A DNA stretch of 64,000 nt from an uncultured Chloroflexia bacterium. GTDB lineage: Bacteria > Chloroflexota > Limnocylindria > Limnocylindrales > CSP1-4. Below the pieces are notes generated by a model. That model had not been told where the DNA came from. It saw only the letters and a program-made list of their open reading frames with translations, and ran no database searches. Location of the stretch: positions 1-64,000 of the forward strand of contig CAVPPB010000003.1 in NCBI GenBank assembly GCA_963707215.1, read 5' to 3'. Every line of letters starts with the position of its first letter. Position 1 is the stretch's first letter. Shown piece by piece: positions 10,522 through 21,113 of the stretch. The translations under genes and the position numbers were made by a program.

Positions 10522-12438
<1,917 letters not shown>

Positions 12439-12494
12439 CCGGCCGCCGGCGGCGCGCCTACGCCAGCGTGCCCTGAGCGACGAGAAAGCCGACG

Positions 12495-13135
12495 ATGACC
12501 CAGCGCACGCACCGCGTCGACCAGCTCCTTCGCGAGGAGATCGGCGGCGATCCTGGCCCGCGAGATCGCCGATCCTCGGCATCGGTTTCGCGACGTCACC
12601 GACGTGGAGACCACGCCCGACCTGCGGCACGCGAAGGTCTGGGTCAGCGTCATCGGGCCGGACCCCGAGCGCGATGAGACGGTCAGCGCGCTCCAGCGTG
12701 CCATGGGCTACGTCCGGCGCGAGCTCGGGCATCGGCTGCGCCTCAAGCGGATCCCGGCCCTCCACGTGCGCCTGGACGACACGGCCGAGCGGAGCACGCG
12801 GGTCTGCGGCTCCTGGCGGAGATCGACTCCGGTCTCGAGGCCGAGGACCTGCCGTCGGGCGAGACGCTGCCCACGCCGGTGCCCCGGATCCGCCACGGCG
12901 ATGAGCGCGAGGACGCCGACGATAACCCGGCGACGACCGGTGACACCCCGGCGACGACCGATGACGCGTCGGCGACGACCGATGATGCGTCGGCGGCCGG
13001 CGAGCCTCGACCCGACGCTGGTCCGCCGCGCCCCGCAAGGGATCCCCGCGCGGCCGCCGCCCCGGCGGGTCGCCGGCCGGAGGCGGGACGCGGCGCTCGC
13101 GGTCCGGCCGTGGTCAGGGAAGGCATCGCCGGTGA
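12495..13135 (+). CDS. rbfA: ribosome-binding factor A with long C-terminal tail (indels)
   Basis: RVDQLLREEI, VETTPDLRHAKVWVS, RLRLKRIPAL; position after infB. Confidence 0.88.
12928..12995 (+). repeat. 3x 21-bp tandem repeat in rbfA tail
   Basis: CGGCGACGACCGGTGACACCC / CGGCGACGACCGATGACGCGT / CGGCGACGACCGATGATGCGT. Confidence 0.85.
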
Positions 13136-14162
13136 CTGTGGATCGCGTCAGTTCGCCGACACGGTGCCCGGCGCCGTCGTCGAGCGCCTCCTGGGTGCCC
13201 GGACCGTGCTGGCGGTCGGGCACGAGCACCCGGACGCCGACACGCTCGGGGCGACGCTGGCCGTCTGTCGGCTCGTCGAGGCACACGGTGGACGGCGACG
13301 GCCGTCTGCACCGATCCGGTGCCGTCGCTGTACGACTTCATGCCCGAGGCGAGCCCGTTTCCGGACGATCCCGACCCGGGATGGCCTACGACCTCCTCGT
13401 CGTCGTCGGACTGCGGCTCGCTCGAGCGGATCGGCCGGTGTCGGCGTCCGCCACGCCGAGCCTCCTCGGGTCGCTGCCGCGGGTCGTGCTCGATCATCAC
13501 GCCCGCAACGAACCGCTCGGGCGGCCGATTGGATCGACCCGGTGCGGCCGCGACCTGCGAGATGGTCGACGCTGCTGGCCGTCCGCCTCGGCGTCTCGTC
13601 GACCGATGGCGATGGCGCCCTGGCTACCGAGCTGATGGCCGGCGTCGTCATGGATACCGCGACGTTCGCGCACCCGAACGCGACGCCGAGGACGCTGGCG
13701 GTGTCGGCCGCGCTGTCGAGGCCGGGGCACCGCTGCTCGGACATCTCACGCCGTCTCTACCGCACGAAGCCCGATGCCCAGCTCCGCCTGTTCGGACGGG
13801 TGCTCGATCGGCTGCAGACGAGCGACGACGGCCGGTCGTCCACTCGTCGCTCCTCGAGGCCGACCTGTGGCCACCGGCACGGATGCCGCCCACTCGGAGG
13901 GGCATCATCGATCTGCTGGCGCCAGTCCGAGACGGCCGAGGTCGCGACTCCTGTTCAAGGAGCAGGGCACGGCACGACCCGGATCAGCGTCCGGACCCAG
14001 CCCGGCGGCGTCGACGCCACGGTGCTGACGGGGCGCTTCGGCGGCGGAGGCCACGCCCGGGCCGCCGGTGCGACGGTCGAGCTCCCGATCGACGAAGCGC
14101 GGCCGGTGGTGCTCGTCGAGGCAGCGCGGCTGGCGGCCGCGGTCGACCGCCGGTCCGCCTGA
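13132..14162 (+). CDS. nrnA: DHH/DHHA1 phosphoesterase (nanoRNase/pAp phosphatase; indels)
   Basis: HEHPDADTLG, LDHH, DTATF, FGGGGHARAAG; position rbfA-DHH-truB. Confidence 0.85.
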
Positions 14163-14164
14163 CG

Positions 14165-15130
14165 ATGCCGAGGCGACCGCGCTCGGACGGCTGGACGGCG
14201 TGCTCGTCGTCGCCAAGCCGGCCGGCCCGACCTCCCACGACGTCGTCGGCCTCGTTCGCCGACTGGCCGGCTCACGCCGCGCGTCGGCCACGGCGGGACG
14301 CTGGACCCTTCGCCAGCGGCGTGCTGCCGATCTTCCTCGGCTCGCGCCACCCGCCTGGCCGAGTACCACCTCGGGCGACGAGAAGACGCTACCGGGCGAC
14401 GGTCTGCTTCGGCGCCTCATCGACGACCGACGATCTCGAGGGGGAGCTCACCCCCTCCGACCGCTCCCCGGACCGGTCGGCCGTGGAAGCCGCTCTGGCG
14501 GGGCTCCTGGGTTCGATCGAGCAGCGACCACCGGCTTTCAGCGCGATCAAGATCGGGGGCAGGCGAGCCTACGCGATGGCCAGGGCAGGACTGACACCCG
14601 ATCTGCGTCCCCGCACCGTGACGATCCATCACCTCGAGGTCATCGACTGGAACGCGGCCGATCCCACGCGGCCGATCGCCACCATGGACGTGATCTGCTC
14701 GGCCGGGACCTACGTCCGCGCGCTCGCCCGCGACCTCGGGGCAGCGACCGGGAGCGCGGCCTACCTCGGGTCCCTCGTGCGCACCGCGAGCGGCGACTTC
14801 GACATCGAGGGGGCCCTCGCGGTCGACGCGATCCGCGAGGCGGCGGCCGCCGGTCCGCAGGGTGTGGCGACCCTCCTCCGGCCGGTCGATGCCGGATTGG
14901 AGTGGATGCGAGCCGTCGCCATCGCGGACGAGTCCGTGCCGCGTCTGCTCCAGGGCCAGGCCGTCCCACCACCGCTCGACCGACCTCCCGAAGCTGGCGG
15001 AGGACCCGTTCGGATCCAGGATGGCAGGGGACGCCTCTTGGCCATCGGCGAGATCAGCGACGGCCGGATCGCCCCGAGGAAGGTCCTGCTCCGTGACCGA
15101 ACGGCCGTCCCGGCGGGCGACGATGGCTGA
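14165..15130 (+). CDS. truB: tRNA pseudouridine(55) synthase (indels in 5' part)
   Basis: KPAGPTSHDVV, GHGGTLDP, PPAFSAIKIGGRRAY, CSAGTYVRALARD. Confidence 0.92.
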   Translation: MPRRPRSDGWTACSSSPSRPARPPTTSSASFADWPAHAARRPRRDAGPFASGVLPIFLGSRHPPGRVPPRATRRRYRATVCFGASSTTDDLEGELTPSDRSPDRSAVEAALAGLLGSIEQRPPAFSAIKIGGRRAYAMARAGLTPDLRPRTVTIHHLEVIDWNAADPTRPIATMDVICSAGTYVRALARDLGAATGSAAYLGSLVRTASGDFDIEGALAVDAIREAAAAGPQGVATLLRPVDAGLEWMRAVAIADESVPRLLQGQAVPPPLDRPPEAGGGPVRIQDGRGRLLAIGEISDGRIAPRKVLLRDRTAVPAGDDG

Positions 15131-15995: not shown

Positions 15996-16024
15996 TTGCC
16001 GTCGGTCGGCCGGCCTGCTATCCT
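15996..16024 (+). promoter_or_regulatory. sigma70-type promoter of rpsO(-pnp)
   Basis: TTGCCG-17 nt-TATCCT with TG extension. Confidence 0.7.
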
Positions 16025-16077
16025 GCGGCGGTTTGTAGAGGTTTGGAACAGATCAGCAGTTCGTGTCGGAGGACCGA

Positions 16078-16347
16078 GTGCCGCTCGCGCGGGAAACGAA
16101 ACAAGAGGTCATCGCCGGATACGCCGTCGCCGAGGGCGACACCGGCTCGCCAGAGGTCCAGATCGCGCTCCTTACCGAGCGGATCAAGGGCCTCACCGAG
16201 CATCTCCGGCGGTTCCCGAAGGACAACCACTCGCGACGCGGCCTCCTCAAGCTCGTGGGCCAGCGACGTCGCCTTCTCGCCTACCTGGTGAAGACCGACG
16301 ACGCCCGCTACCGGGCCGTCATCGGACGGCTCGGCCTGCGCCGCTAG
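16078..16347 (+). CDS. rpsO: 30S ribosomal protein S15
   Basis: [33 protein letters not shown]; GGAGG SD. Confidence 0.98.
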
Positions 16348-16460
16348 CCAGCCGCGACGGGGACCTCGGGCCGACCGCCCGGGGCCCGACCGTATCGGCG
16401 CCGGCGGCCGGCCCCCAGGCCAGGTCGATGCCTCCTCCACGACAGGAGGAAACACTACCC

Positions 16461-19043
16461 GTGTCTCACGTCTTCGAGACGACCCTCGGTGGTCGCACCC
16501 TGACCATCGAGACCGGCAAGCTCGCCAGGCTCGCCGGCGGCTCCGTCACCGTCCGCTACGGTGACACCATGGTCCTCGGGACCGCCAACCGCTCGGAACC
16601 CCGCCCGGGGCTCGACTTCTTCCCGCTCACCGTCGACTTCGAGGAGCGGATGTACGCGGCAGGGAAGATCCCTGGCGGATTCATCAAGCGCGAGTCGCGT
16701 CCGTCAGAGGCCGCCATCCTGGCCGCACGGTTGACCGACCGGCCGATCCGGCCGCTGTTCCCGGAGGGCTACAAGGACGACGTCCAGGTCGTTATCACGG
16801 TCCTCTCGACGGATCAGGAGAACGACCCGGACATCCTCGGCACGATCGCCGCCTCGGCCGCCCTGACGATCAGCGAGATCCCCTTCCAGGGGCCCGTCGC
16901 GGCCGTCCGGGTGGGCCGTATCGACGGCGAGTTCGTCGTCAACCCGTCTACCAGCGACCTCGAGGCATCCGAACTCGACCTCGTCGTCTCGGGCACCCGC
17001 GACGCCATCATGATGGTGGAGGCTGGGTCGAAGATCCTGCCGGAAGACGTCATGGCCGAGGCCATCCTCTTCGGCCACCGAGCGCTCCAGCCGATCATCG
17101 ACCTGGAGGAGGAGCTGCAGCGAGCGGTCGGGAAGGCGAAGCGTCTGCCGTACATCGAGCCGGCGGTCGGCTCCGTCGTCGACTTCGTGGACCGCTTCAA
17201 CGCCGGTGAGACCTTCGTCGTCGTCGACGTCGAGACGACGGGCACGGACCCGCGGACGGCCGAGCTCGTCGAGCTTGCGGCGGTCAGGATCCAGGGCGGC
17301 GCCATCGTCGATCGTTGGTCGACCCTCGTCGATCCAGGACGTCCCATCGTCGGCAACCAGATGCACGGCATCACCGATGCCGATCTGGCGGGGGCGCCAA
17401 GCCCAGCCGACGCCGCTCGCCGATTCGTCGAGTATGCCGGCGACGCCACGATCGTCGGCCACTCGGTCGGCTTCGACCTGGCCTTCATCGAGGAGGCGCT
17501 CGGAGACGGGACGCGCTTCGAACCCGGCCGCTACGCCGACACGCTGGTCATCGCCCGGGAGGGCTATCCCGGCGCCGAGTCGTATCGGCTCGGCGATCTC
17601 GCGGCCTTCTTCGGGGTCGACCTGTCCCAGGCCCATCGTGCCCTCCCCGATGCCGAGGCGACGGCCGGGCTGTTGATCCGCTTCGGGACCGACCTGCAGG
17701 TCCGCCTCGACGCCCTCAAGGCCGGCATCGCCGACGCCATCAGGGCTCATCGCAGTGGCGGCGACGCGGCCGCCCTCCTCGAGCGGGCCCGTCGTGAGGC
17801 CCGCGTCGGCAAGGGCCTCTTCGGCCTCGTCCACAAGAAGGTCGTCCGGCGGCTCGTCGTCGACGAGGGGATCCGGATGGACGGCCGGGGCCTCGACGAG
17901 ATCAGGCCGATCGACGTGGAGGTCGGCCTGCTGCCGCGCGCCCACGGCTCGGGCCTCTTCACCCGTGGCGAGACCCAGGCCCTGACGATCGCGACGCTCG
18001 GGCCGTCCTCGGACGTGCAGCGCATCGACACCATCAGCCCGGAGACCGAGAAGCGGTACCTCCACCACTACAACATGCCCCCGTATAGCACGGGCGAGAA
18101 CAAGCCCATGCGCGGCCCGAGCCGCCGCGACATCGGCCACGGCAACCTGGCCGAGCGGGCGCTCATCCCTGTCCTCCCCGACGCCACCGAGTTCCCGTAC
18201 GTCATCCGGCTCGTCAGCGAGTGCGTGACGTCGAACGGTTCGACGTCGATGGCCTCGACCTGTGGCTCGACGCTCGCCCTGATGGACGCCGGCGTGCCGA
18301 TCAAGGCCCCGGTCGCCGGAGCGGCCATGGGGCTCGTCCTCGAGGCCGACGGCAGCTTCGCCGTGCTGACCGACATCCTCGGCAAGGAGGATGCCTTCGG
18401 TGACATGGACTTCAAGGTCACCGGCACCAGCGAGGGCATCACGGCCCTCCAGATGGACATCAAGGTCAAGGGCATCGACGAGCGGGTCATCCGCGAGGGC
18501 CTGGCCAAGGCGCTCAAGGCCCGCCTGGCGATCCTCGAGAAGATGACCTCGGTGCTGCCCGAGGCCCGCGCGGAGATCAACCCGTTCGCCCCCCGGATCA
18601 TCACGATGAAGATCAACCCGGAGAAGATCCGGGAGATCATCGGCAAGGGCGGCAGCATGATCCGCAAGATCCAGGAGGAGACCGAGACGGAGATCAACGT
18701 CGAGGACGACGGCACGGTCGAGATCGCCGCCGTCAACTCCGACAACTCCCGCAAGGCGATCCAGTGGATCGAGAGCCTCACCCGCGAGGTGGAGATCGGT
18801 GCCCTGTACATGGGCAAGGTGACCCGGATCATGGGCTTCGGAGCGTTCGTCGAGATCCTTCCCGGCAAGGAAGGCCTCGTCCGCATCGGTGAGCTCGCCG
18901 ACTACCACGTGCCGAGCGTCGAGGACGTCGTGTCCGTCGGCGACGAGGTGATGGTCGTCGTCACCGAGGTCGACCGCCAGGGGCGGGTCAATCTCTCCCG
19001 CAAGGCGGCGATGCAGCGTCATCTCGCTCAGGGCCGCTCCTGA
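16461..19043 (+). CDS. pnp: polynucleotide phosphorylase (860 aa) with internal DEDDh exonuclease domain
   Basis: PH1 (FFPLTVDFEER..AAGKIPGGFIKRE), PH2 (RMDGR, HGSGLFTRGETQ, SNGSTSMAS, DAFGDMDFK), KH (IIGKGG), S1 (FGAFVEI); AGGAGG SD before GTG 16461. Confidence 0.97.
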   Translation: MSHVFETTLGGRTLTIETGKLARLAGGSVTVRYGDTMVLGTANRSEPRPGLDFFPLTVDFEERMYAAGKIPGGFIKRESRPSEAAILAARLTDRPIRPLFPEGYKDDVQVVITVLSTDQENDPDILGTIAASAALTISEIPFQGPVAAVRVGRIDGEFVVNPSTSDLEASELDLVVSGTRDAIMMVEAGSKILPEDVMAEAILFGHRALQPIIDLEEELQRAVGKAKRLPYIEPAVGSVVDFVDRFNAGETFVVVDVETTGTDPRTAELVELAAVRIQGGAIVDRWSTLVDPGRPIVGNQMHGITDADLAGAPSPADAARRFVEYAGDATIVGHSVGFDLAFIEEALGDGTRFEPGRYADTLVIAREGYPGAESYRLGDLAAFFGVDLSQAHRALPDAEATAGLLIRFGTDLQVRLDALKAGIADAIRAHRSGGDAAALLERARREARVGKGLFGLVHKKVVRRLVVDEGIRMDGRGLDEIRPIDVEVGLLPRAHGSGLFTRGETQALTIATLGPSSDVQRIDTISPETEKRYLHHYNMPPYSTGENKPMRGPSRRDIGHGNLAERALIPVLPDATEFPYVIRLVSECVTSNGSTSMASTCGSTLALMDAGVPIKAPVAGAAMGLVLEADGSFAVLTDILGKEDAFGDMDFKVTGTSEGITALQMDIKVKGIDERVIREGLAKALKARLAILEKMTSVLPEARAEINPFAPRIITMKINPEKIREIIGKGGSMIRKIQEETETEINVEDDGTVEIAAVNSDNSRKAIQWIESLTREVEIGALYMGKVTRIMGFGAFVEILPGKEGLVRIGELADYHVPSVEDVVSVGDEVMVVVTEVDRQGRVNLSRKAAMQRHLAQGRS
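17211..17684 (+). other. DEDDh (DnaQ-like) 3'-5' exonuclease domain inserted in PNPase
   Basis: ExoI FVVVDVETTG, HGITD, ExoII GHSVGFD, DTL..AR, L..LA..FG, ExoIII HRALPDA; in frame. Confidence 0.93.
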
Positions 19044-19137: not shown

Positions 19138-20223
19138 ATGCCCTCCGACACGACGACGCCCCTCTCGGTCGCGGTCGTCGGCGCTACCGGCGTCGTCGGC
19201 CGGACGATGATCCGCGTGCTTCTCGAACGTGGCTTCCCGATGCGCGAGCTGCGGCTCCTGGCGTCGGCCCGGTCGGCCGGGTCGACCCTGACCCTCGACG
19301 AAGTGTCCTACCCGGTCGAGGAGGCGACCCCGGACGCGTTCGAGGGGGTCGACGTCGCTCTCTTCAGCGCCGGTGGCGGGACCTCGAAGGCGCTTGCCCC
19401 GGAGGCGGCGGCTCGAGGTGCGACGGTCATCGACAACTCCTCCGCCTGGCGGATGGACCCGACCGTCCCGCTCATCGTCAGCCAGGTCAACCCGGAGGAC
19501 GGCGCCTGGCACGAAGGGATCGTCGCCAACCCCAACTGCTCGACGATGCAGCTCATGCCGGTCCTTGGCGCTCTCAGGGACGCCGTGGGCCTCGAGCGGG
19601 TGGTGGTCGACACTTACCAGTCGGTCTCGGGTACCGGTTCCAAGGCCATCGCCGAGCTCGAGGGGCAGGTCCGTGCATACGCGGCCGGCCAGGAGCCGGT
19701 CGTCTCGGTCTACCCGCACCAGATCGCCTTCAACGTGCTGCCCGAGATCGACGTCTTCCTCGACAACGGCTATACGAAGGAGGAATGGAAGGTCGTCACG
19801 GAGACGCGCAAGATCCTCCACCTTCCCGAGCTTCGCGTCTCGTGCACTGCGGTCAGGGTGCCGGTCTTCGTGGGGCATTCCGAGGCGGTCCACGTCGAGA
19901 CCGTCGATCCGATCGACCCGGACCATGCCCGTGCGTTGTTCGCAGCGACGCCCGGCGTAGTGGTGCAGGACGATCCCGGGTCGCACCTCTACCCGCTGGC
20001 GACGAAGGCCGCCGGGGTAGACGACGTATTCGTCGGCCGAGTCCGCCAGGACGTCTCGATCCCCGATGCCCGGGGTCTCGTGTTCTGGGTCGTCAGCGAC
20101 AACCTCCGCAAGGGAGCTGCCAGCAACGCCGTCCAGATCGCCGAGGTTCTCCGGGAGCGGGACTGGGTCCAGGCCGCGGCGCGACGTCAGCCGGACGGCG
20201 TCGACGGCGGACCGGCTCGGTGA
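19138..20223 (+). CDS. asd: aspartate-semialdehyde dehydrogenase
   Basis: VVGATGVVG, IDNSSAWRM, ANPNCST, TYQSVSGTG, DNLRKGAA. Confidence 0.97.
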   Translation: MPSDTTTPLSVAVVGATGVVGRTMIRVLLERGFPMRELRLLASARSAGSTLTLDEVSYPVEEATPDAFEGVDVALFSAGGGTSKALAPEAAARGATVIDNSSAWRMDPTVPLIVSQVNPEDGAWHEGIVANPNCSTMQLMPVLGALRDAVGLERVVVDTYQSVSGTGSKAIAELEGQVRAYAAGQEPVVSVYPHQIAFNVLPEIDVFLDNGYTKEEWKVVTETRKILHLPELRVSCTAVRVPVFVGHSEAVHVETVDPIDPDHARALFAATPGVVVQDDPGSHLYPLATKAAGVDDVFVGRVRQDVSIPDARGLVFWVVSDNLRKGAASNAVQIAEVLRERDWVQAAARRQPDGVDGGPAR

Positions 20224-21113
20224 CGGAGGCCGAGCGCCGGGCGGCGCTCGAGCGGATCGCCGATGAAGTCCGCGCCTGCACTGCGTGTCGGCTCCATGAA
20301 GGCCGTGCGCAGGCGGTGCCGGGCGAGGGCCACCCGTCGACGGAGGTCCTGTTCATCGGCGAGGCGCCTGGCCTCAACGAGGATCGACAGGGTCGGCCCT
20401 TCGTCGGCGCCGCCGGCCAGTTCCTTGACGAGCTCCTCGGCTCCGTCGGCTGGCGCCGTGACGAGGTCTACATCACCAACGTCGTGAAGTGCCGCCCACC
20501 GCAGAACCGCGACCCGGAGGCCGACGAGATCGCCGCCTGTGCGCCCTTCCTGCAGCGGCAGTTCGAGATCCTCGAGCCGACCCTCGTCGTGACGCTGGGC
20601 CGCCACTCCATGGCCCGGTTCCTGCCTGGAGCCAGGATCGGGCAGGTCCACGGGACCGTGCGACCCGCGCCGGAAGGCTCGCCGGCGGAGGGCACCGATA
20701 TCTTCGCCATGTACCACCCAGCGGCGGCGCTCCACCAGGGGTCGCTCAAGGCCACGCTGCTCGAGGACATGGCCCGGGTCCCGGGCGCTCTCGTCGATGC
20801 CCGGGCCGCCCGGGTCTCGTCGGAGCCGATCGGGCCGACGCCCGAGGCTGCCCCATCAACCCCGTCGGAGGCACCGGCGGCAGTGACCGCAGCCTCCGTG
20901 GGTAGCGAGGCTGGAACGGATGCTACCGAGGAGGCCGGTCCAGTCGAGCGCGGTGCGAGGCTGGCCGGACCGGCGGCGGCCGACGGTCCCGGATCCACCG
21001 ACCGCAACCCCGAGATCCAGACGGCCGACGATCGCCTGCCCGCCCCCCAGGCGCAGCCAGACGAGCCGGTCGCTACGGCGATCGACGACGACCAGATGAT
21101 GATGTTCCGCTGA
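20220..21113 (+). CDS. family-4 uracil-DNA glycosylase with disordered tail ending QMMMFR
   Basis: CTACRL, GEAPG, PFVGAAG, NVVKCRPPQNRDP, YHPAA. Confidence 0.93.
   Translation: MTEAERRAALERIADEVRACTACRLHEGRAQAVPGEGHPSTEVLFIGEAPGLNEDRQGRPFVGAAGQFLDELLGSVGWRRDEVYITNVVKCRPPQNRDPEADEIAACAPFLQRQFEILEPTLVVTLGRHSMARFLPGARIGQVHGTVRPAPEGSPAEGTDIFAMYHPAAALHQGSLKATLLEDMARVPGALVDARAARVSSEPIGPTPEAAPSTPSEAPAAVTAASVGSEAGTDATEEAGPVERGARLAGPAAADGPGSTDRNPEIQTADDRLPAPQAQPDEPVATAIDDDQMMMFR

Follow-up and report, generated by a model that had tools for sequence, protein, structure and literature searches.

Can a single polypeptide combine the phosphorolytic ring enzyme of bacterial RNA decay with a complete hydrolytic exonuclease? 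The question is raised by the pnp gene (16461..19043, + strand) of the window analysed here: the 64,000 nucleotides at positions 1 to 64,000 of contig CAVPPB010000003.1, from an uncultured Chloroflexia bacterium (assembly GCA_963707215.1; class Limnocylindria in the GTDB lineage). Translation of the open reading frame (ORF), together with Pfam and NCBIfam matches, identifies the product as an 860-amino-acid (aa) polynucleotide phosphorylase (PNPase) with an internal DEDDh domain. Pfam finds RNase_PH (twice), RNase_PH_C (twice), KH_1 and S1 in the order of a PNPase, and the match to TIGR03591, the PNPase equivalog of NCBIfam, reaches 942.7 bits (cut-off 525.05); it falls into two stretches on either side of the insert, the second starting at residue 444. 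RNase_T (PF00929) matches at residues 253–404 (E 9.7e-26; 91.7 bits, cut-off 24; profile positions 1–163 of 164), with a full DEDDh signature: Exo I D-x-E (D256/E258), Exo II D339 and Exo III H-x4-D (H392/D397, with His rather than Tyr). The PNPase helical-domain model, PF03726, is matched at residues 451–476 (profile 55–80 of 81; 20.3 bits, below the cut-off of 24.6), a split linker that marks the variant and does not put the protein outside the PNPase family. The frame runs without a stop from 15996 to 19043 (+) and, from a GTG start at 16461, gives the same length as the product's database copy and most relatives; no second PNPase was found in the 3.26-Mb genome (5 contigs, 84.8% complete).

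Along the + strand the first RNase PH-like domain, PH1 (aa 1–223, 16461..17129; RNase_PH 11–141, RNase_PH_C 144–208, AlphaFold2 helices up to 223), is followed by an N-terminal remnant of the alpha-helical domain (aa 224–250, 17130..17210), placed by AlphaFold2 secondary structure, in which G224 and K227 are invariant in a 62-sequence alignment (A1). The DEDDh 3′–5′ exonuclease domain (aa 251–410, 17211..17690; Pfam RNase_T) was placed at 17217–17672 by a genome profile scan, and its catalytic codons lie at 17226–17228 (D256), 17232–17234 (E258), 17475–17477 (D339), 17634–17636 (H392) and 17649–17651 (D397), all on the + strand. The C-terminal part of the helical domain (aa 411–470, 17691..17870, from AlphaFold2 and the PF03726 match) leads into PH2 (aa 471–700, 17871..18560), the catalytic RNase PH-like domain with the phosphate- and metal-binding motifs, recognised as the second RNase_PH stretch and from the second stretch of TIGR03591; the KH domain (aa 714–771, 18600..18773; KH_1, E 9.3e-12) and the S1 domain (aa 777–848, 18789..19004; S1, E 1.9e-18) complete the protein. 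The landmarks AVGKAKR and GIRMDGR, on either side of the insert, fall at residues 222–228 and 470–476. PH2 residues S594, S596–S599, D644, D648, D650 and K652, in motifs that we take to form the phosphate- and metal-binding active site, are invariant in 62/62 sequences of alignment A1.

An AlphaFold2 model built on alignment A1 (predicted local distance difference test score, pLDDT, 83; predicted template modelling score, pTM, 0.73) predicts the exonuclease fold with confidence, in the order PH1, helix 237–247, exonuclease fold (strands 252–289, helices to about 410) and PH2. The last exonuclease helix continues as one long helix, 394–432, and helices 436–447 and 451–469 then lead to PH2. Whole-chain Foldseek matches were PNPases only (7ogl, 7ogk, 4aim and others; TM-score on the target 0.70–0.89). 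About 27 aa precede the fold in the model and about 60 aa follow it, compared with about 64 aa between the points equivalent to residues 237 and 459 in relatives without an insert; the event is therefore a clean insertion of about 160 aa. Of the alpha-helical linker, the first helix precedes the DEDDh domain. A preliminary description of this locus, made from the sequence, had proposed just such a PNPase with a DEDDh exonuclease in its helical domain, flanked by helical sequence of about 25 and 60 aa, with the five catalytic residues numbered as above and with phosphorolytic site, KH and S1 intact; the family scans, the model and the alignments bear this out on each point, as do the relatives.

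It is conceivable that the insert is an artefact of assembly or gene calling, created for instance by a chimeric contig. No support for this was found, although the window does hold a frameshift-ridden stretch upstream; as the preliminary description held, pnp lies outside that stretch, which includes the split infB gene (10689–12904) upstream of rpsO. A junction query (residues 225–470, spanning both junctions) retrieved 1188 proteins at E ≤ 0.001 among 8000 candidates scored. The best 120 of the 1188 all carry PF00929 and PF01138 with 65–100% identity over the junction region; most are 858–869 aa long, they derive from JGI, ENA and NCBI assemblies on contigs of up to 1.7 Mb, and where named they are Candidatus Limnocylindrales or Chloroflexota metagenome-assembled genome (MAG) proteins. 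Full-length junction matches were present in 40/41 close-relative genomes and, among the families of the class (here f1 to f5), in 44/44 genomes of f1, 6/6 of f2 and 49/50 of f4. These counts include genomes flagged as unpublished (G099, G118, G122, G127, G136, G142, G153, G310, G335, G383 and G422); dropping them changes no pattern, and none is in the alignments or trees. Over 100 assemblies, independent and drawn from several sources, share the in-frame junctions, which excludes a chimeric contig; the pnp frame, moreover, is free of internal stops, and the chance of an artefact is negligible.

Matches were also obtained in f3 (47/49) and f5 (1/1), but over the exonuclease part of the query only. 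Each of five f3/f5 loci fetched encodes an N-terminal RNase_T domain followed by DEAD and Helicase_C_2, the arrangement of an exonuclease-bearing DinG helicase (exo-DinG), and the PNPase frames of the same five genomes are 737–749 aa long and match the window PNPase at about 5–237 and 459–851, without an insert (5/5). An insert common to the whole class was accordingly rejected. Among the matches listed from a 301-genome sample of the phylum, every full-length junction match was in f1, f2 or f4; the three best matches from outside the class, when checked, were exo-DinG, and five PNPases from other Chloroflexota classes were of the ordinary type of about 740 aa, with no insert. The insert, as far as sampled, is confined to three families of the class (f1, f2 and f4).

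A wider search compared residues 150–330, which span a junction, with 1.84 billion representatives and retrieved 35 proteins at E ≤ 1e-30; the matches listed at that threshold were forms from the same lineage, mostly fragments, some covering the junction in part. This search may have overlooked an independent fusion that is highly divergent or lies elsewhere in the protein. Among ESM Atlas clusters containing both RNase_PH and RNase_T, Chloroflexota was the commonest phylum. Two candidates for an independent fusion were rejected: an odd match of 44% identity (P0172) is a frameshift-garbled copy, and P0224 is a different protein. The latter, 1045 aa long and of metagenome origin, has three RNase_T domains in tandem, then GIY-YIG and a UVR motif, and resembles an enlarged version of the DEDD + GIY-YIG (PRK07883-type) proteins.

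Is the inserted domain likely to be catalytic? Conservation was assessed in an alignment of 122 insert-bearing proteins: 108 database proteins (850–885 aa), the window PNPase and 13 locus ORFs from f1, f2 and f4, with the database copy of the window protein and 11 proteins that are fragments or of outlying length left aside. D256, E258, D339, H392 and D397 were invariant in 122/122, so the expectation in the preliminary description that relatives would keep the insert with its acidic residues holds for f1, f2 and f4. Between f1 and f4 the insert region shares 40–47% identity and the whole protein 62–64%; that the catalytic set has stayed fixed amid such change points to purifying selection. 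The alternative that the domain is a non-catalytic module, binding 3′ ends or nucleotides or gating the pore for nucleoside diphosphate (NDP) and phosphate and so regulating PNPase, could draw on the proposal, in the available part of PMC2723993, that the interrupted helical domain influences NDP and phosphate access. A module that only binds would not need all five catalytic residues, invariant here despite substantial divergence, and we consider this alternative very improbable.

The nearest solved structures by sequence were the PolC exonuclease 2p1j (E 5.8e-24), PolC 9qpc, DinG 8zef (8e-17), Cas2-DEDDh, DnaQ and ExoX, and the best NCBIfam families were DEDD + GIY-YIG (PRK07883), DinG-exonuclease and PolC-exonuclease. 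Neither RNase T nor Orn was among the best 25 of 66 NCBIfam families or the 10 solved-structure matches at E ≤ 1e-5. By these matches the insert is classed as a DEDDh domain of the DnaQ/PolC/DinG proofreading type rather than as an RNase T or Orn; of the families with which the preliminary description proposed to compare the insert, DnaQ, PolC and DinG are thus its kin by sequence and RNase T and Orn are not. Identity between the insert and the exonuclease domains of the class's own DinG proteins is 43–49%.

When, and from what, was the insert gained? A maximum-likelihood tree of 24 PNPases, with the insert columns removed and five insert-less PNPases of other classes as outgroup, placed the 14 insert-bearers in one clade (support 100/100), sister to an insert-less clade of f3 and f5 (100/99), with a weak branch (77/78) joining the two. 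In a tree of 43 exonuclease domains the 19 PNPase inserts again formed one clade (95/95), split into f4 and f1+f2. Since the inserts form one clade in both trees, one gain at one position is the simplest history, and it would have taken place in the common ancestor of f1, f2 and f4. The inserts stood apart from the DinG-exonuclease group, with a stand-alone exonuclease of 194 aa on a long branch as their neighbour (92/84). A tree constrained to unite the inserts with the DinG exonuclease domains of the class cost 13.6 log-likelihood units (approximately unbiased, AU, test p = 0.109), so that derivation from those domains is a candidate origin neither supported nor rejected by this test.

The meaning of the gain depends on what else the cell can bring to a 3′ end. 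Family scans with Pfam covered 101 draft genomes of the class (29 of f1, 4 of f2, 33 of f3, 33 of f4, 1 of f5 and the window's own). PF00929 had one match in the window's own genome, the insert, and in f1 exactly one match in 23/29 genomes and two in 6/29; in f3 and f5 the domain is carried on DinG. The insert is thus the only detectable RNase_T-type domain in most insert-bearing genomes. The DinG helicase C domain, PF13307, was detected in 32/33 f3 genomes and 1/1 of f5, compared with 1/29 of f1, 0/4 of f2, 1/33 of f4 and none in the window's own, that is, it was not found in 65 of the 67 insert-bearing genomes (own included); of the two exceptions, the one in f1 is a frame of 2041 aa and the one in f4 a fragment at a contig end. 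As the f3/f5 exo-DinG proteins (about 890–1040 aa; RNase_T + DEAD + Helicase_C_2) have an N-terminal DEDDh domain in 5/5 checked, the DEDDh domain is carried either on DinG or on PNPase. RNB (RNase II/R) was found in 0/101 genomes of the class by a scan positive in 11/14 control genomes, and PF01612 (RNase D/Pol I 3′–5′ exonuclease) in 0/29 genomes of f1, 0/4 of f2 and not in the window's own; its single match in f4 lies within the PNPase insert. From these scans the bacteria seem to possess an unusually small set of 3′–5′ exonucleases.

Two further frames were noted in this inventory. The f1 exception (G117:C10:19756-22632) is the 2041-aa open frame with a Helicase_C_2 match and a weak RNase_T match, and may be a giant exonuclease–helicase fusion unlike the f3-type DinG. 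Three of the four f2 genomes scanned (1.0–1.4 Mb in size) contain, besides the insert, a second, very divergent DnaQ-like ORF of 206 aa (for example G025:C2:301250-302000), with a branch length of 2.9 in the exonuclease tree.

On balance, the insert is probably an active, metal-dependent, phosphate-independent 3′–5′ exonuclease mounted on PNPase and centred on RNA, with a side activity on DNA likely. RNA is favoured because the carrier keeps every RNA-handling feature, because the other hydrolytic 3′ exoribonuclease families scanned were not found in these genomes, and because an exo-DinG of the same subfamily, that of Listeria, removes unprocessed rRNA in vivo: it is described in the available part of PMC12774634 as a 3′–5′ exoribonuclease clearing such rRNA. 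The protein would form the usual PNPase trimeric ring, with RNA 3′ ends entering at the KH/S1 face to be phosphorolysed in PH2. According to the available part of PMC2723993, S1 and KH occupy one face of the E. coli PNPase ring and the helical domain the opposite one, where it contributes to a pore leading to the active site, thought to give access to NDP and phosphate. By analogy, the three exonuclease domains of the trimer may crown the ring face away from the RNA entry side, giving three metal-dependent hydrolytic 3′–5′ sites beside the helical-domain side pore. Since a given 3′ end could occupy one site at a time, the two chemistries would alternate or take different substrates. The hydrolytic site would trim, irreversibly and without need of phosphate, those 3′ ends that the ring is unable to engage or to finish, candidate targets being short tails beside duplexes, stalled intermediates and precursors of stable RNAs. 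In cells with no RNase II/R and no RNase D-type domain detected, its job may equal that of the exo-DinG DEDDh domain in the sister families. Activity on single-stranded DNA (ssDNA) or RNA–DNA hybrids is likely too, and is not separable by sequence from activity on RNA. A link with phosphate scarcity, hydrolysis taking over when phosphorolysis is limited, is speculation.

Several observations weigh against this RNA-centred reading. The closest solved relatives by sequence (PolC, DnaQ, Cas2-DEDDh, ExoX) act on DNA. Bacillus subtilis DinG prefers ssDNA and, in the available part of PMC12525004, does not cut single-stranded RNA with Mg2+. The exonuclease tree puts the inserts outside the class's DinG-exonuclease clade; insert gain and exo-DinG loss fall on one branch, which makes a single coincidence and not a statistic; and the absences of other exonucleases rest on Pfam scans of drafts, the window's own genome being 84.8% complete.

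Some of the same evidence would suit an insert that is mainly a DNA or R-loop exonuclease, which replaced the lost exo-DinG and uses PNPase as a platform for binding 3′ ends. The best solved-structure matches (PolC exonuclease, DinG, Cas2-DEDDh, DnaQ and ExoX) and the top NCBIfam matches (PRK07883, DinG and PolC) point this way, as does the presence of exo-DinG in f3/f5 and its not being found in f1/f2/f4, where gain of the insert coincides with its loss; most insert-bearing genomes, moreover, have no other RNase_T or PF01612 domain for DNA work. According to the available part of PMC12525004, ssDNA and the RNA strand of hybrids are the preferred substrates of B. subtilis DinG, which also degrades R-loop RNA; the same paper counts PNPase among the 3′ exonucleases for DNA tails. 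However, the host protein retains KH, S1 and the phosphorolytic site, the insert does not descend from the class's DinG domain in the exonuclease tree (a descent that the AU test above does not reject), and the DinG exonuclease domains of Listeria and Staphylococcus aureus degrade RNA too, according to the portions of the literature available. Sequence does not decide between RNA and DNA; as judged from it, a mainly DNA-directed or R-loop-directed role is a serious possibility that we nevertheless hold to be somewhat unlikely.

Could the insert instead be a built-in nanoRNase, finishing the 2–5-nucleotide limit products of the phosphorolytic site? The insert would lie on the ring's product side, next to the active-site pore described in the available part of PMC2723993, and in most insert-bearing genomes no Orn-type or further RNase_T domain was detected. 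Against this, the DHH family (PF01368) was found in 101/101 genomes, usually with two matches, a RecJ-size frame and a frame of 320–450 aa lying 4–5 kb from pnp. Three of these shorter frames, taken from f4, f1 and f5, encode DHH/DHHA1 proteins whose alignment to the NrnA model runs from end to end, at 77–82 bits against an equivalog cut-off of 350. Since insert-bearing and insert-less families alike have the NrnA-like candidate, there is no support for a nanoRNase gap that nanoRNA finishing, as suggested in the preliminary description, would fill; nor, as noted, do Orn and RNase T feature among the best family and structure matches. A nanoRNase role is in our judgement quite improbable.

A more elaborate arrangement may be imagined, in which the ring hands 3′ ends through its channel or pore to the three far-face DEDDh sites, making the protein a one-polypeptide counterpart of the nuclease-loaded exosome; the insert would then be the cell's only DnaQ-type exonuclease, serving both RNA quality control and DNA/R-loop processing, a function transferred from DinG to PNPase. 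This extended scheme we regard as unlikely.

How far is such a protein foreshadowed by known systems? Canonical PNPases (TIGR03591; E. coli 7ogl, 7ogk and 3gcm, Caulobacter crescentus 4aim and 4am3) have the same order of PH1, helical linker, PH2, KH and S1, share the phosphorolytic residues and the rpsO–pnp synteny, and give the best fold matches, but they lack a 160-aa DEDDh domain in the linker, of whose Pfam model the window protein keeps the last third. Exo-DinG, of Firmicutes and Chloroflexota (S. aureus DinG 8zef), provides the same DEDDh subfamily as one domain per genome on a larger nucleic-acid enzyme, and 3′–5′ activity on both DNA and RNA is reported in the available parts of PMC12774634 and PMC12525004. 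Its carrier, however, is a helicase with the DEDDh domain N-terminal, whereas here the carrier is PNPase, the domain is internal and the inserts are a clade of their own; the window PNPase has no DEAD or Helicase_C_2 match and scores 110–115 bits with the exo-DinG models (TIGR01407/NF005981), against cut-offs of 548–789. In PolC-type DNA polymerase III (2p1j, 9qpc), the closest solved relative by sequence, the exonuclease is nested (9qpc residues 447–605 of 1474), which indicates that the DEDDh fold tolerates being an insert. There the host is a DNA polymerase whose exonuclease proofreads its own product, whereas PNPase under normal conditions degrades from the same 3′ end and does not extend it.

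In function, the protein would resemble known pairings of a PH ring with a DEDD nuclease, made up of separate proteins. The degradosome of C. crescentus contains PNPase and RNase D, a PH ring and a DEDD-superfamily hydrolase in one assembly, and in the available part of PMC4245959 its authors draw the parallel with the exosome and Rrp6; the two are separate proteins, each on RNase E, and RNase D is of the DEDDy type, as against a covalent DEDDh fusion here. The eukaryotic exosome joins a PH-type ring to the hydrolytic 3′–5′ nucleases Rrp6 and Rrp44, and is a working analogy only: its ring is catalytically dead and its nucleases are separate subunits, whereas the window PNPase has an intact site and an insert that would lie opposite the RNA-binding cap. 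Rrp6 is a DEDDy enzyme and Rrp44 is of the RNB type, and the position of the helical domain recalls Rrp44's place on the exosome rather than Rrp6's. The comparison with Rrp6 made in the preliminary description accordingly survives in so far as a PH ring is joined to a DEDD nuclease; its topology is loose, the helical domain being opposite S1/KH (available part of PMC2723993). Searches of full-text literature, with subscription journals and supplementary files outside their scope, found no paper describing a PNPase with a DEDDh insert, in agreement with the preliminary description, which knew of none. The proteins are in databases under generic names and the domain pair is in ESM Atlas clusters, but the architecture has apparently never been studied.

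PNPase is among the most studied and most conserved RNA-decay enzymes, and the carriers of the insert are abundant uncultured bacteria of soil and freshwater. If its second site is active, the protein would offer a compact model for the coordination of phosphorolytic and hydrolytic 3′–5′ decay, so far studied in multi-subunit exosomes and degradosomes. It raises the questions of how structured RNA is matured and cleared in a lineage lacking RNase II/R and RNase D, and of whether a DnaQ-type domain can pass between a DNA helicase and an RNA enzyme and retain its cellular job.

The surroundings of pnp include, immediately upstream, a 94-aa ORF (16063..16347, + strand) that we take, from its translation, to be rpsO, which encodes ribosomal protein S15 and commonly precedes pnp. 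Beyond rpsO lie ribF, truB, rbfA, infB and nusA, with infB broken over three overlapping frames (10689–11393, 10936–11946 and 11348–12904); the frameshifts in window positions 10689–14300 are either local assembly indel errors or real decay. Relatives have an intact NrnA-like gene of 320–340 aa between rbfA and truB. Of the syntenic NrnA-like DHH gene in the window only a 26-position fragment is detectable (13206–13283, E 0.008), inside the frameshift-ridden stretch. Downstream of pnp is asd (aspartate-semialdehyde dehydrogenase, 19138–20223), and frame 19785–21113 includes a uracil-DNA glycosylase domain of the family-4 type; over its long N-terminal stretch this last ORF overlaps asd and is probably non-coding there.

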